Source: Candidatus Saccharimonadota bacterium (GTDB taxonomy: Bacteria; Pseudomonadota; Gammaproteobacteria; Enterobacterales; Enterobacteriaceae). From it: a DNA stretch of 32,000 nt. The DNA lies in the NCBI GenBank assembly GCA_000217635.1, contig CP001817.1, positions 360,001-392,000 of the forward strand, written 5' to 3'. A model generated the notes under the pieces. That model did no database searches. It had not been told where the DNA came from and saw only the letters and a list, made by a program, of their open reading frames with translations. Numbering within the stretch: the stretch's first letter is position 1; every line of letters starts with the position of its first letter. Made by a program: the position numbers and the translations under genes. This document shows, piece by piece, positions 3,226 to 23,902 of this stretch.

Positions 3226-3842
3226 ATGAACAGATATTTTAAAAAAAACATAAAAAAAAACTCTATTTCTATACCATTTGTTATTGATCAGACAGAACGT
3301 GGAGATCGTTCATACGATATATTTTCACGATTATTAAAAGAAAGAATAATCTTCGTTACCGGAGTTATCGAAGATAATTTAGCTAATATGATTGTAGCTC
3401 AAATCCTATTTTTAGAATCAGAAAATAACTCTCAAGATATATATTTATATATTAATTCTCCCGGGGGAATCATTACAGCTGGTTTATCTATTTATGATAC
3501 TATGCAATTTGTAAATCCAGATATTAATACAATTTGCTTAGGGCAATCATGTTCTATGGCCGCAATATTATTATGCGCAGGTAAAAAAGGTAAGAGATTT
3601 TGTTTGCCTAATTCTAGGGTTATGCTACACCAACCTTTAGGTAGTTTTCAAGGGCAAGCTTCAGATATTTTTATACATGCAAAAGAAATAAAAAAACTAA
3701 GGATTCGGTTAATACTATATTGTCATATCATACTCAACAACCAATAAATAAAATCATAGAAGACACTGAAAGAGATTATTTTCTATCTCCACAAGAAGCA
3801 CTTCAATATGGAATAATTGACGATATACTTTATAAAAAATAA
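3226..3842 (+). CDS. clpP: ATP-dependent Clp protease proteolytic subunit, frame broken at an A7 tract (3690-3696)
   Basis: The ORF 3226-3747 matches ClpP up to IHAKEIKK and then diverges. The frame from 3696 to the stop at 3840-3842 reads [48 protein letters not shown], which matches the ClpP C-terminus. One added A joins the two frames into about 205 aa. Confidence 0.9.
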
Positions 3843-7805: not shown

Positions 7806-9682
7806 ATGTCAAAAATTAATTTTTTTTCAAAAAAAATATTAGCAATTATTATTATCGTAACAATTATGCTATCTATAATCTTTAATAGTATAGTGATTTA
7901 CTTTATAAAAGATTATAAAAATCACGCTATTTTAATTAATAACGAAAAAATTTCACCTAAAATAATACAGTGTCTGTATTCTTTTAAAAAAAAATATCAT
8001 CAGAATCAAGAAAAAAATAAAACAAATGATTTAGAAACTAATTTTTATAAAAATTATTATATAAAAAAATATTAATGAAAATAATTTATACTTCTTTATT
8101 AAAACAATATACACAAAAAATTCATTTTCACATTAATACTGAAAATATTAAAAATATTATTAAATCATCAAAATTCTTTAAAATAAATAATAAATTCAAT
8201 TTAAATAAATATTTAAATTTTTTAAATTCTATTGAATTAACTAATGCTCAATATTTATCTGCTCTTAAAAATAAAAATTCCGTAAAATCTTTAATATTAT
8301 TATTATTAAAATCAGAAATATTTCTTGAAAAATATGTTCATAAAATTATGAATCAGCATCTTGAGAAAAGAAATGTACAAATAGGATCATTTAATAGTTC
8401 TTTAACAGATTTAGAAAAAAAAATTCCATTTAAAGATATAAAAAACTATTATGTTTTAAATAAAAAAATTTTTTTTATCCAAAAAGAATAAAGTTAGTAA
8501 TATTATGTTTTAAAAAAGCCCTTCCAACAATAAAAAATAATAATAAAATAAATAAATTTAATACAAAAAACATAAAGAAAACTACTCAAAAATACCAAAA
8601 AAAATATCAAATAATTAAAATAAAAAAAATAAAATATGCACAATTATTATTTCATAATATCCAACATAAAAAAAAATTTCATCAAAATATTACAAAACGT
8701 TTACTAGAAATAAAAAAAGAGTATGAAATCCTAAATACAAAATGGATTAATGAAAAAAATTCTTCTGAATTTATAAGAAAATTAAAACTAGATAAAATAG
8801 GAGACATTTCTAAATTAATTAAATATAAAAATAATTTTTATATTGTGATATTAAAAAATAAAAAAATTGAATATACTCACTATCCTGATATTATAAAAAA
8901 AATACAAAAAATCGTATTAATACTATTAATAAAATATCCAAAAATATAAAATTTATAAAAAATATTTCAAATTTATTAATAGAAAATCAATTAAATTTAC
9001 CAAAAAATAATAAGAATATTTATTTAAAAAAATAGAAACAAAATGGATTACACAAGATAAGAAATCCCAATATCGTTATACACATTCATTAATGCATTTC
9101 ATACAAAAAAATTTTTTTTAATCAAACTAATAATTTAACAAATAAAAACCCAATAAAAATTTTTTTATCAAACAAAAATAATGTATATATTTTACAAAAA
9201 AAACTATATCAACCAAAAAAAATTAAAAAATTGGAATGCGTTTATAATACTATTAAAAAAATTTTACAAATTAAAAAATTATATCTAAAAAATTCCTATT
9301 TAATAAAGAAATTTTTATCTAATAAAAATAATATAAATAACAATTTTTTAAAAAATAATAAATTAATATTACAACCAACAAAAACAATAACATTAAAAAA
9401 CAATAAAAAAGATAAACAACTTAAAATAATTTTTAAATTACCTATACCAAAAAAAATAATTTCGTATATACAATACTTCATCAAAAAAATAATCAAGACC
9501 GATTATTAATTTTAAAAAATGTATTTTACCAATCTATTAGTGAGAGTCAGAAAAGAGAATTAATAAAAAAAATAAAAAATCAATATAAAAATTCAATTTT
9601 TTCTACTATATTAAAAAATATATTTCAAAAATCTACAATTCAATATAATGAAAAAATATTAAAAACGATTCAAGTATCTTAA
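7806..9682 (+). pseudogene. ppiD: periplasmic chaperone / PPIase PpiD, fragmented by multiple frameshifts
   Basis: PpiD-like segments occur in order but in different frames. The N-terminal TM segment is 7806-8075 (a TTG at 7791 is also possible). 8075-8491 matches LIDEALLDQY...GKFDNSRY. About 8478-8948 is parvulin-like (YAQLLFHNIQ...NFYIVILKN). 9231-9509 follows, and the last piece ends NSIFSTILKNIFQKSTIQYNEKILKTIQVS at the stop 9680-9682. I traced at least 5 to 6 frame changes. Two of them are at A7 tracts (8063-8069 and 9483-9489). Confidence 0.85.
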
Positions 9683-9740
9683 CATATATTAATATTTAAT
9701 TATTATTAAAATATTTATATATTTAAAGTAATATTTTTAT

Positions 9741-11264: not shown

Positions 11265-11559
11265 ATGTTTACTGAAAAAAATATTACTGAATTTATGAAT
11301 CAAGCTAAAAATATGCAAGAAAAAAATAAAGAAGATGCAAAAAAATATACAAAATACAGAGGTAATAGGACAATCCGGAGCAGGAATGATTCATATTACT
11401 GTTACTGGAACATATGAATGTAAAAAAGTAGATATTAGTAAAGAATTAATAAATCAAAATAGCAAAAATATTCTTGAAGATTTAATTTCGGCAGCTTTTA
11501 ATGATGCAATAAAAAAAATTTTAGATATACAAAAAGATAAATTAACTTTACAATCATAA
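11265..11559 (+). CDS. ybaB: nucleoid-associated protein YbaB/EbfC, frame broken at an A7 tract (11339-11345)
   Basis: The ATG at 11265 opens MFTEKNITEFMNQAKNMQEKNKEDAKK, compared with E. coli [20 protein letters not shown]. The remainder (IQNTEVIGQSGAGMIHITVTG...AAFNDAIKKI) lies in the next frame, which is the track ORF 11335-11559. Removing one A gives an alignment of exact length. Confidence 0.85.
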
Positions 11560-11723: not shown

Positions 11724-13601
11724 ATGAACAATGAAAATAAAACGAAACATTCTTTTCAGTCAGAAGTTAAACAATTACTCCATTTAATGATTCATTCTCT
11801 ATATTCAAATAAAGAAATCTTCTTACGAGAATTAATTTCTAATGCATCTGATGCTATCGAAAAATTAAGATTTTCCGTTATTTCTAATCCTAAAAAATTT
11901 ATAAATCATAATAATACTGCAAAGATACAAATTTCTATTGATAAAACAAAAAAAACATTATCAATTTATGACAATGGTATCGGTATGACTTATGATGAAG
12001 TAAAAAATAATTTAGGAACAATTGCAAAATCAGGTACAAAATCATTTTTAAAAAATATTAGTAATGATAAAAAAGAAAAGAATGATTTTATTGGACAATT
12101 TGGAGTAGGATTTTATTCTTCTTTTATAATTGCAAAAAAAGTATGTGTATTTACTAAACATGCTCAAAACCTATCTGATACAGGAACATTATGGGAATCT
12201 GAAGGTCAAGGTGAATATACAATCGAAAAAATTAAACAAAAAGAATATGGAACAAAAATTATTTTATATATTAAAGAAACAGAAGAAGAATTTTTAGAAA
12301 CTTGGAATATAAAAAACATTGTAAAAAAATATTCTGATCATATTTCTATACCTGTAGAAATAGAAAACTATGATGAAAAAACAAAGTTATTTCTTGGGAG
12401 AAAATTAATCAAGCACAAAGCATATGGACTAAAAATAAAAAAAGAAATTTCTGCAAAATCATATCAAGAATTTTATAAATATATAACACATGATTCTGAG
12501 GAACCATTATTATGGAGTCATAATAAAGTTGAAGGAAACCAAGAATATACAAGTTTATTATACATTCCTCAAAAAGCTACTTGGGATATGTGGCACAGAG
12601 AAAATAAACATGGTTTAAAATTATATGTTAAACACGTATATATTATGGATGATGCAATTCAATTTTTACCAAATTATTTAAGGTTTGTAAAAGGAATTAT
12701 CGATTCTCAAGATTTACCTTTAAATATTTCTAGAGAAATTTTACAAGATAATAAAATTACGCAAAATTTACGAAAATCTTTAACTAAAAGAGTATTAACT
12801 ATATTAAATAATTTATCTGAAACAGATGACATTAAGTATCAAAAATTCTGGAATATTTTTGGTTTAGTATTAAAAGAAGGACTAGCAGAAGATTCAATCA
12901 ATCAAAAACAAATATCTAATTTACTTCGATTTACATCTATTAGTATGCAAAAAAAAGAACAAACATTATCGTTAAAACAATATATTAATAATATGCTTCC
13001 TGAACAAGAAAAAATATATTTTATTACAGCAGATAGTTATGAATCAGCAATTAATAGCCCTCATTTAGAAATATTTCGAGAAAAAAATATTGATGTACTT
13101 TTATTGTCAGATCGTGTTGATGAATGGATGATGAATTATTTGCCAGAATATGAAAATAAAAAATTTCAATCGGTAAGTAAATCAGATATTTCATTAGAAA
13201 AATTAATTAAAAATGATAAATTAAATATAGATCAAAAAGATCAAAATATAGATATTTTTATTGAAAAAAATAAAAATATATTAGGAAATCGTGTTAAAGA
13301 TGTTCGTATGACTAACCGACTTATTAATACTCCTGTAATGGTATTAACTGATACAAATGATATGAGCACTCAAATGGCAAAATTATTTAGTGCAGCTGGA
13401 CAACCTATACCAGACGTGAAATATTTATTAGAAATTAATCCAAAACACCCATTAATAAAAAAAATACAAAATATAAAAGATATAGAAAAAATTTCTATAT
13501 GGATTGAAATGTTATTTGAACAGGCAATTTTTGCTGAAAAAGGAACATTAGATAATCCTCATCAATTTATTAATAGAATTAATAAATTGTTTATATCATA
13601 A
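11724..13601 (+). CDS. htpG: molecular chaperone HtpG (Hsp90); open ORF containing an internal out-of-frame segment
   Basis: 625 aa. It has FQSEVKQLLHLMIHSLYSNKEIFLRELISNASDA, GQFGVGFYS, NYLRFVKGIIDSQDLPLNISRE and MSTQMAKLF. It is colinear with E. coli HtpG except for 12381-12443 (see findings). Confidence 0.95.
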   Translation: MNNENKTKHSFQSEVKQLLHLMIHSLYSNKEIFLRELISNASDAIEKLRFSVISNPKKFINHNNTAKIQISIDKTKKTLSIYDNGIGMTYDEVKNNLGTIAKSGTKSFLKNISNDKKEKNDFIGQFGVGFYSSFIIAKKVCVFTKHAQNLSDTGTLWESEGQGEYTIEKIKQKEYGTKIILYIKETEEEFLETWNIKNIVKKYSDHISIPVEIENYDEKTKLFLGRKLIKHKAYGLKIKKEISAKSYQEFYKYITHDSEEPLLWSHNKVEGNQEYTSLLYIPQKATWDMWHRENKHGLKLYVKHVYIMDDAIQFLPNYLRFVKGIIDSQDLPLNISREILQDNKITQNLRKSLTKRVLTILNNLSETDDIKYQKFWNIFGLVLKEGLAEDSINQKQISNLLRFTSISMQKKEQTLSLKQYINNMLPEQEKIYFITADSYESAINSPHLEIFREKNIDVLLLSDRVDEWMMNYLPEYENKKFQSVSKSDISLEKLIKNDKLNIDQKDQNIDIFIEKNKNILGNRVKDVRMTNRLINTPVMVLTDTNDMSTQMAKLFSAAGQPIPDVKYLLEINPKHPLIKKIQNIKDIEKISIWIEMLFEQAIFAEKGTLDNPHQFINRINKLFIS

Positions 13602-18185: not shown

Positions 18186-21106
<2,921 letters not shown>

Positions 21107-21368: not shown

Positions 21369-21446
21369 GTCTTTTTTTATGTTTTTTAAAAAATATCATT
21401 TTTTATAAAAATTTTTATGTAACAAACGAATAAATAAATTAATATT

Positions 21447-22230
21447 TTAAATATTAAGTATTATATGAAACCACGAAAAAAAACGTAATCTGTATTACTA
21501 AAATACCTATCCTATCAGAAAAATTTTTTATTCCTTCTCTTTTACATAATAATAAGAATGAAGTCAAGTTACCATTTTTATTATAAGAAATATCATAAAA
21601 AAAGTTTTTTTATATAATATAACAAGTATGAAATATAAGGAATGTCATCATAAAAACTACATGAAATAGAATTTACAATACAATAAAAAAAATTAAATAC
21701 CATATTTTATTTTAAAAATAAAAATTTCTCTAAATATTTTAAATTTTTTAACTAATATTTTAAATTTTTGGACAGCTTTCTTTAATATATAAACACGATA
21801 ATTTTTGATTAATAAATAATATATAACTAATATTGTAATTCCACCTACTCCTAATCATAAAGAGTTTGTATTTTTTTTAAAAAAAAATAAATCTTTTAAA
21901 TCATATAATAAACTTAATCCATCAATATTACTACCTATAATTTTTTGTTAGAATATTTTATTAAAGTATTTACTGTTTTTAAATTCTTTTAAATATCTAT
22001 TTATTATATAAATAATTAAAAAAATTTTCTTTTTTAAAGATATAATAATATTAACTCTAAAATTTCCATTACCACAAAAATTAAAAAATATAACAAAAAA
22101 ATTTATACCTACATATAATACAGAGATTTATTGATATAATATATTTTTTTCTTTGAAAAACATTTATGTATTATATAAGTGATAATAGATATTTAATAGG
22201 ATTTCCAAATAATGTAATATATTTTCCCAT
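21447..22230 (-). pseudogene. aroE: shikimate dehydrogenase remnant, near full length but with frameshifts and an in-frame stop
   Basis: The minus strand starts at the ATG at 22230 with MGKYITLFGNPIKY (E. coli ETYAVFGNPIAH). Later pieces lie in other frames. They are GNGNFRVNIIISLKKK (GGKGANVTVPFKEE), QKIIGSNIDGLSLLYDLKDL ([20 protein letters not shown]), a TGA followed by LGVGGITILVIYYLL (LIGAGGASRGVLLPLL), and DRIGILVIQ (DGLGMLVAQ). Confidence 0.8.
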
Positions 22231-22484
22231 TTTTTTCTAAAAGACTTTTTTGCAACATATCATAATCCTATGGTATAATAAAAAAAATTTAAAATTTTAT
22301 TAATATATTAATTAAAAAAAATAAATTTTTTATACACTTGTAATATCATTACTTTATATACTAAAAATTAAAAAATTATTAAAAAAAAATTTTTTTAATA
22401 ATTTAAAAAATTTGTTTTAAGTTCATTAATTCTTTTTTATAATTCTTTTTTATATTAAATTTACATATAAATTAAATAATATCT

Positions 22485-22931
22485 ATGTCTATAAAAAAAA
22501 TTTTACAATATCCAGATAATCGTTTACGAAAAATTGCGAAACCAGTCAAAAATATTGGACGAATAACTAAAAAAATAATCAGTGACATGTTTGATACAAT
22601 GTTAGCACATAAAGGGATTGGATTGGCCGCAACGCAAATTAATATTCACCAACAAATTATTGTAATAAAAAAAAATATATACAAAAATCCATCATTAATT
22701 TTAATTAATCCTATTCTTTTAAAGTCTTCCGGAAACATTGCTATTAATGAAAGCTGTTTATCTGTACCAAACATTCAAAAAAAATTAATCGAGCATATTA
22801 TATTCACGTTAATGCAATAAACTATAACGGAAAAAAAAATAACAATAAAAGCTAAGTCTTTATTAGCAATATGTATTCAACATGAACTAGATCATTTAAT
22901 AGGAAAACTATTTATTGATCACCTTATATAA
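22485..22931 (+). CDS. def: peptide deformylase, frame broken at A8 (22777-22784) and A9 (22831-22839) tracts
   Basis: Frame 0 reads [21 protein letters not shown]...GIGLAATQ...[12 protein letters not shown]. The middle piece [18 protein letters not shown] lies in another frame. The last piece [30 protein letters not shown] returns to frame 0, with its stop at 22929-22931. The three pieces joined align to E. coli Def with exact spacing. Confidence 0.88.
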
Positions 22932-22962: not shown

Positions 22963-23902
22963 ATGTCTAAAAAAAAAATTACGTATTATTTTTGCTGGAA
23001 CTAATGAGTTTTCACTCCAACATTTAAAATCATTATTTTTATCAAATTATATTATTAGTGCTGTTATTACTAAATATAATAAGAAAACAATTTCTCCTAT
23101 AAAAGATTTTGCATTAAATCACAATATTTTTATATTACAACCTAAAAATTTAAATAAAAAAAGTTTTTATAATACAATTAAAAAATACAGGCAAATATTT
23201 TTAATTGTATGTGCATATGGTATGATTATACCTTCTTCAATACTAAAACTGTTTTCAAAAAAAGCAATAAATATACACGCTTCTCTGTTACCCCGATGGA
23301 GGGGAGCTGCTCCAATCCAATGGGCTATATTATCTGGTGATAATAATACCGGAATTAGTATTATTCAAATGAATGATCAAATAGATGCTGGAAAAATTTT
23401 ATATTCCGTCTCTTGTCCTATTCATAACTCTGATACAACTAAAACAATATATAAAAAATTAATACCTATTTCAATAAACGCTATGCATCATATTTTAATA
23501 AAAATCATTAAAAATAACATTATCAATTCTTATAAACAAGATATAAAAAAAATAACTTACGCGCCCAAAATAAAAAAAGAACAGACACGGATATCATGGA
23601 AAAAATCAGCACAATATAATGAACGATTAATACGCGCATTAAACCCTTATCCTTATTGTTATTTTATTTTAAAAGATAAAATTATTAAAATAATACAAGC
23701 ATCTGTATTATTAAATGATTATAAAAAAAACTATAGAATTGGAGAAATTGTGTGCGCCAATCAGTTAGGTATACAAGTATATTCAAAAAATAAATTATTA
23801 AATATAGAAGTAGTACAAATAGCCGGAGGTATACCTATACATGTTAGTCAATTATTACATTCTAAAAAATCTTGGTTTACTCCTGGAACTATAATATTAT
23901 AA
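22963..23902 (+). CDS. fmt: methionyl-tRNA formyltransferase, frame broken in an A10 tract right after the start codon
   Basis: ATG TCT at 22963 is followed by A10 (22969-22978). The next frame is open from there to 23902 and reads [16 protein letters not shown]...VCAYGMIIP...INIHASLLPRWRGAAPIQ, colinear with E. coli Fmt ([20 protein letters not shown]...). The track ORF 23222-23902 is only the part after an internal Met. Confidence 0.9.

Follow-up and report, generated by a model that had tools for sequence, protein, structure and literature searches.

Peptide deformylase (Def) of Escherichia coli, a type 1B enzyme for which structures are available (PDB 1DEF, 1BS4), ends in a C-terminal helix, and its 147-aa core, the form used for 1DEF, is active; the gene, def, is paired with fmt. 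For genes interrupted within homopolymers, the closest described systems are the frameshifted genes of Buchnera and Blochmannia, AT-rich obligate insect symbionts, in which a ±1 indel in a long poly(A) run breaks a gene that is otherwise intact and free of accelerated protein evolution, and which are partly rescued by transcriptional slippage (Tamas et al. 2008; PMC3164680; PMC3017870). The strongest published argument for the function of such genes is the maintenance of the frameshift across strains or species. Comparable differences have also been attributed to sequencing: Portiera CP003835, a largely 454-based genome, carries 18/23 genome-unique homopolymer indels, and these are suspected errors (Sloan & Moran 2013, PMC3673631). 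Recoding at A-runs is represented, moreover, by dnaX-type -1 frameshifting and by the A-run slippage of IS elements (PMC5009743).

The window, that is, the whole stretch of 32,000 nucleotides analyzed here (G+C content of 25.2%), matches Buchnera aphidicola of Cinara tujafilina (NC_015662 / CP001817; chromosome of 444,925 bp). The best matches of its Def and HtpG proteins are found in Buchnera aphidicola of Cinara aphids, and the closest complete relative is the Buchnera of Cinara confinis (LT667503.1). The def gene occupies positions 22485-22931 of the plus strand, from the ATG at 22485 to the stop codon at 22929-22931. According to the translation and to the alignment with intact Buchnera and E. 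coli Defs, its 5' part (22485..22784, residues 1-100) is read in the frame of the ATG (frame 0), and it includes motif 1, GIGLAATQ (22614-22637), which conforms to the family pattern GxGxAAxQ, and motif 2, ESCLS (22749-22763). This part ends with a first poly(A) run (run 1, A8, 22777..22784, flanked by C and T), which codes for Lys-Lys and the first base of an Ile codon and is one A below what the Def frame needs. Frame 0 then runs into a TAA (22818..22820), which overlaps the codons ATA-AAC (Ile-Asn) of the true Def frame and closes the open reading frame (ORF) as written after 111 aa. The middle segment (22784..22837) is correct in the shifted frame only, where 13/18 residues are identical to those of the closest relative. 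From the second poly(A) run (run 2, A9, 22831..22839, flanked by G and T, with one A in excess), the ATG frame gives the Def sequence again (22839..22931), with motif 3, HELDH, at 22881-22895, 3' of the TAA at 22818, and with the final stop codon.

HELDH is thus encoded in the DNA, but it comes to lie in one polypeptide with motifs 1 and 2 only after the addition of one A at run 1 and the removal of one A at run 2. When run 1 alone is corrected, the product ends with GKKNNNKS*, so both corrections are needed. A separate C-terminal Def fragment was ruled out, as no start codon follows the stop in that frame, and alternative fixes (-2 at run 1, +2 at run 2) were discarded as they alter the number of Lys residues, which the relatives conserve.

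The doubly corrected gene encodes a protein of 148 aa, which aligns without gaps with residues 1-147 of E. coli Def as well as with the intact Defs of four Buchnera relatives from Cinara aphids, and the stretch that begins with the E of E(G/S)CLS and ends just before LLAIC is 37 residues long both in this protein and in E. coli. For the assessment of the Def motifs, we referred to the family TIGR00079 / PF01327, type 1B. Against TIGR00079, whose cut-off is 103.95 bits, the corrected protein scores 163.7 bits and the 111-aa ORF as written 97.9 bits, the former falling above the cut-off and the latter below it. Judged from the sequence, the Def match across both frame breaks far exceeds chance. 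In the alignment with the relatives, E89, C91, L92, and S93 of motif 2 are invariant, and C130, H133, E134, and H137 in the region of motif 3 are nearly so. As in the E. coli enzyme, Gln51, Cys91, His133, Glu134, and His137 are in place in the corrected protein, and fmt lies directly 3' of def. Different from E. coli Def, the corrected protein lacks the C-terminal helix and stops at 148 aa, in which it resembles the active 147-aa core, and the ORF as deposited ends ahead of motif 3. A length of 148 aa is shared by the Defs of three of the four closest Cinara Buchnera strains, while the fourth has been called as 159 aa from an upstream start and is compatible with 148 aa.

The first-pass annotation of this DNA had described def as carrying two poly(A) frameshifts, A8 at 22777-22784 and A9 at 22831-22839, with motifs 1 and 2 in frame 0 ahead of a stop at 22818-22820 and with the HExxH motif out of reach in the encoded frame. 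All of its coordinates and readings hold: the translation yields the ORF of 111 aa, and HELDH lies beyond the TAA. The claim that one A added and one A removed restore a 148-aa Def, with the same 37-residue spacing as in E. coli, is likewise borne out by the gapless alignment and by the score of 163.7 bits, so that its structural reading of def is supported. What the present analysis adds is the run lengths in the orthologues, the lack of relaxed selection, the hit in fmt, and the occurrence of seven defects in five genes.

A DNA alignment of def from the window and from four intact relatives allowed us to compare the two runs site by site. At run 1, where the Def frame of the window needs A9, two relatives have A9, the strain of C. 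confinis has an A8 with a G after it (codon GTC), and in the remaining relative the run is longer, with 11 A; at run 2, GG followed by A8 is found in three relatives and an interrupted run in the fourth. The bases that correspond to the TAA at 22818-22820 are TTA or CTA in the relatives, and the TAA of the window arises from ATT>ATA, a silent change as far as Def is concerned. The identity of def to its counterpart in the C. confinis strain is 81% at the nucleotide level, and the sole gaps are the two run-length gaps. All four closest relatives are therefore in frame at both runs, and the frameshift is not conserved among them; even these, the closest strains in the comparison, are separated from the window by a synonymous divergence of at least about 0.7. 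Among the matches listed, the named Buchnera Defs are full-length.

Selection on def shows no sign of relaxation. The dN/dS ratio (Nei-Gojobori) is 0.15-0.17 between the window and the relatives and 0.15-0.20 among the relatives, and a three-taxon calculation from the Nei-Gojobori distances gives about 0.15 for the branch of the window, the same as for the branches of the relatives. Moreover, def was checked for lesions beyond the two run-length defects, and none was found. In the search for a second copy of the strain, the truncated Def and RplQ, looked up as exact proteins, returned no match, homologue searches with Def and HtpG returned no near-identical copy (the proteins of the window being present on one contig only), and a pattern scan of metagenome contigs, in which A7-A10 were allowed at run 1, returned no match.

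Directly 3' of def, the next gene is also frameshifted, a link that was absent from the first-pass annotation. In fmt (22963..23902, plus strand), the ATG at 22963 does not share the frame of the ORF of 312 codons, which is otherwise open and conserved, and the A10 at codons 3-6 (22969..22978) has one base in excess before TTA CGT. In the relatives, the corresponding site is either an in-frame A10 followed by a codon beginning with A or A7 followed by TTA, and fmt is intact in 4/4 of them. The corrected Fmt reaches 245.5 bits against TIGR00460 (cut-off of 201.5), and a check for lesions of fmt other than the excess base in A10 found none. The dN/dS ratio of fmt is 0.30 on the branch of the window versus 0.23-0.27 in the relatives, and we observed no relaxed constraint on the gene.

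Defects of the same kind occur in three further genes of the window. In clpP (3211/3226-3842), the A7 at 3690-3696 is one A short and the last 50 residues are readable in another frame; ClpP of the C. confinis strain is intact, with 205 aa. In ybaB (11265-11559), the A7 at 11320-11326 is one base too long with respect to the A6 of the relative, and the 20 N-terminal residues and the remainder of the protein are in different frames. In htpG (11724-13601), an A6 (12376-12381) that is one short is followed by an A7 (12437-12443) that is one long, the relatives carrying A7 and A6, respectively. The 19-20 codons between the two htpG runs are out of frame but free of stops, so that the 625-aa ORF stays open; about 20 residues, KLFLGRKLIKHKAYGLKIKK, stand there in place of the conserved NKVISWEKINQAQSIWTKNKK; the latter can be read in the other frame and is kept in all relatives. 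The htpG pair in this way disrupts the ISWEKIN..ALW motif, conserved Hsp90-wide and kept in every relative. The first-pass annotation had likened the two pairs to each other, the first run short and the second long in both and the stop present only in def, and this comparison stands, as no stop lies between the A6 and the A7 of htpG.

Taken over the window, the defects number seven, all of them ±1 changes in runs of A6 to A10, all specific to the window, and distributed over 5/29 genes (17%), namely, def, fmt, htpG, clpP, and ybaB. In the Buchnera of C. confinis (LT667503.1), 29/29 of these genes, as well as aroE and ppiD, are intact. With the C. confinis proteins as probes, the 20 genes from adk to rplE gave single, uninterrupted matches, and the ribosomal-protein, rpoA, and secY genes of the window are free of defects. 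In Buchnera genomes that have been checked, each with about 350-560 genes, homopolymeric frameshifts number 1-18 (Degnan 2011, PMC3164680 Table 1); the density of ±1 defects in the window far exceeds this and is unusually high.

The 29 genes contain 208 A/T runs of at least 6 bases, 50 of which measure at least 8 bases. Off-by-one lengths affect 3/50 long runs and 4/158 runs of A6-A7. The affected long runs are all found in def and fmt, where they represent 3/7 of the runs of at least 8 bases versus 0/43 in the other genes (Fisher-type P of about 0.002), the other 43 long A/T runs in coding sequence being in frame. Furthermore, the seven defects form three adjacent pairs, an arrangement with a P of about 3e-4 to 6e-4 under independent placement; it follows that they are not independent events. 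In the shifted frames, stops occur at 0.11 per codon, so that the chance of an open shifted stretch is 0.18 for the 15 codons of def and 0.11 for the 19 codons of htpG. One open and one closed -1/+1 pair correspond to the chance expectation, so the idea, considered as a candidate, that selection has kept the shifted stretches of the two pairs readable is unsupported.

The window also contains genes whose state is of a different kind. The aroE gene (about 21400-22260, minus strand), coding for shikimate dehydrogenase, has 71% nucleotide identity to that of the C. confinis strain; it is interrupted by 10 frameshifting gaps and by no fewer than 4 premature stops, and its ORFs are all under 40 aa; on these grounds, we regard it as a truly eroded pseudogene. 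Its erosion implies that the chorismate pathway of this Buchnera is interrupted, a gap that the Serratia partner may cover. In ppiD (about 7806-9700, plus strand), which is intact in the C. confinis strain (618 aa), we counted 9 gap events and at least 5 matching pieces in three frames, at 31-65% identity, and the gene appears to be a pseudogene midway through decay. The pattern of dead genes in this genome is displayed by aroE and ppiD, and def and fmt do not resemble it; in def, the traits of an eroded pseudogene, that is, multiple lesions, in-frame stops, and an identity lowered with respect to the neighbors, are absent.

The explanation that we favor, with a probability of about one in two, is that the frame breaks of def are miscalls of homopolymer length in the deposited, probably 454-based assembly. 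The true run lengths would then be A9 and A8, and def would be an intact gene for an ordinary, selectively maintained peptide deformylase, reduced to a 148-aa catalytic core as in the relatives from Cinara aphids; the A10 of fmt and the ±1 defects of clpP, ybaB, and htpG would stem from the same cause. The corrected run lengths of def are those found in the orthologues, all of the defects are ±1 changes in A-runs, and the five affected genes are otherwise without faults. Four of the defects are in A6-A7 runs, where slippage is weak, and the overall pattern of seven defects in five genes favors an assembly error over a special double recoding. The clustering of the seven defects does not fit simple, independent miscalls, so that locally poor stretches have to be assumed, and we suggest that the errors would be located in such stretches of an assembly made from 454 pyrosequencing data without short-read polishing.

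Bacteriome DNA of C. tujafilina was sequenced by the originating laboratory with 454 FLX/Titanium, and the assembly of the co-symbiont needed Illumina polishing (PMC4122931); the same paper describes a HiSeq 2000 library made from this aphid population. The likeness to Portiera CP003835 lies in single-base homopolymer differences that are concentrated in one, here probably, 454-derived genome and break otherwise conserved genes. Against the miscalls, it has to be considered that the other 43 long coding runs are in frame and that the ribosomal-protein, rpoA, and secY genes are clean, that the depth at which bacteriome libraries usually cover Buchnera should limit consensus errors in runs of A6-A7, and that def and fmt are functionally coupled, so that joint hits are also predicted by a real relaxation.

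If the deposited run lengths are real, def and fmt could belong to the known class of endosymbiont frameshifts and be partially rescued by transcriptional slippage, a reading that we consider unlikely on balance. A small share of the def mRNAs would gain an A at run 1 and lose one at run 2, and only these would encode active Def; Fmt would be produced from transcripts that lose one A at the A10; and purifying selection on this trickle of product would keep the ORFs clean. In favor of this possibility, the runs of def and fmt, at 8-10 nt, are in the range in which slippage rises steeply (PMC5574713), and corrected transcripts in frameshifted genes of Buchnera and Blochmannia amount to 12-50%, according to the account of Tamas 2008 given in PMC5009743. 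In Blochmannia, moreover, frameshifted genes, including pth, show no rate acceleration (Williams & Wernegreen 2010, PMC3017870). The unchanged dN/dS ratios and the clean ORFs of def and fmt agree with this, and the synonymous ATT>ATA change, by which the stop in the shifted frame was created, could be tolerated only if the true frame is what counts. With the described genes of the two genera, def has in common the ±1 indel in a long poly(A) run of an AT-rich obligate insect symbiont, an otherwise intact coding sequence, and a protein evolution that is not accelerated, with no relaxed selection.

Different from those genes, however, def has two opposite defects that lie 46 nt apart and enclose a stop, which requires two slippages in each mRNA. 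Even at 12-50% for each event, the doubly corrected share would be 1.4-25%, and realistically far less for an A8 and an A9, the first run being only an A8. In Buchnera transcripts, homopolymers account for 16/57 deletions versus 151/157 insertions, and no frame-restoring event was found transcriptome-wide (PMC5574713). The frameshift of def is found in none of the four closest relatives, all of which are in frame, so that this comparison shows no maintenance across strains or species; in addition, the run lengths come from one deposited sequence, and the A6-A7 defects of clpP, ybaB, and htpG are left uncovered. The full version of this hypothesis, in which Def comes from doubly and oppositely slipped transcripts, Fmt from transcripts slipped at the A10, and the formyl-Met cycle persists under selection at a percent-level trickle, is in our opinion rather doubtful.

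It is also possible, although we think it improbable, that the run lengths are real and that def and fmt became pseudogenes only very recently, the cycle of formylation and deformylation having been dropped as a unit. The failure of fmt would make def needless, and the hypermutable A-runs would be the first to drift. Mazel et al. are said to have found in 1994 that def of E. coli is deletable only when fmt is inactive, which would suit a joint loss. The concentration of off-by-one long runs in the two genes (3/7 versus 0/43 elsewhere) points in the same direction, as does the stop in the shifted stretch of def, owing to which the -1/+1 pair restores no product. Besides, the genome is actively eroding aroE and ppiD, and gene inactivation in Buchnera usually begins with homopolymer indels (PMC3164680). 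On the other hand, in view of the lack of other lesions and of any rise in dN/dS, the three hits would have to fall, by our estimate, within roughly the last 1% of the lineage. Def is full-length in all of the relatives examined, and a loss confined to the formyl-Met cycle leaves the defects of the same type in clpP, ybaB, and htpG unexplained.

Programmed ribosomal frameshifting, with a -1 shift on the in-frame A_AAA_AAA (22778-22784) and a +1 shift on AAA_A at run 2, appears very improbable. The heptamer is in phase, as in dnaX-type frameshifting and in the A-run slippage of IS elements, so that a -1 shift there gives ...QKK INR..., and a +1 shift at run 2 gives GKK ITI.... However, different from those systems, def offers no stimulatory structure downstream of either run, the folding z-scores being +0.48, -0.45, and +0.83, and no Shine-Dalgarno-like (GGAGG-like) stimulator upstream; the site is not conserved, the relatives being in frame at both places; and the second, opposite shift that is required, within 55 nt of the first, would make the process very inefficient. 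Least credible of all is a real compensated frameshift, in which translation of the shifted stretch would give an altered but functional Def: the two changes cancel out in length and the htpG pair, of the same design, stays open, but translation through the shifted stretch of def is excluded by the TAA at 22818-22820, unless this is read through, and an open stretch of 15 codons had a chance of only 0.18.

As for the biological reading of def, the locus is most likely either an artifact or an unremarkable case of a class that is already well described. If the defects are miscalls, the favored case, the public genome carries many false frameshifts, including, within this window alone, those of def, fmt, htpG, clpP, and ybaB; its counts of pseudogenes and coding sequences are inflated, and studies of gene loss should rely on it only after polishing. 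With real lengths, def and fmt would provide a further example of the known homopolymer-frameshift class, with two modest twists, that is, the opposite corrections needed in one mRNA and the involvement of both enzymes of the formyl-Met cycle, and the pair could serve as a workable test of how much Def and Fmt a reduced symbiont minimally needs.

Outside the protein-coding genes, one C is absent from the conserved GAAAUACCACCC of the 23S rRNA (position 18913, minus strand, about position 2194 of the rRNA) in comparison with both the Buchnera of C. confinis and E. coli. Considered as an internal gauge of sequencing error, the gene has no A/T run of at least 6 bases, and the missing C is its sole indel in a conserved stretch; the lost base is probably an unpaired one, and its absence could be either a real change or a base-calling error.

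Finally, the long runs of the window are biased toward the sense strand, as the coding runs of at least 8 bases comprise 45 of sense A versus 5 of sense T. On the plus strand, 69 A-runs are found versus 20 T-runs, a distribution that follows the orientation of the genes and the AAA codons for Lys.
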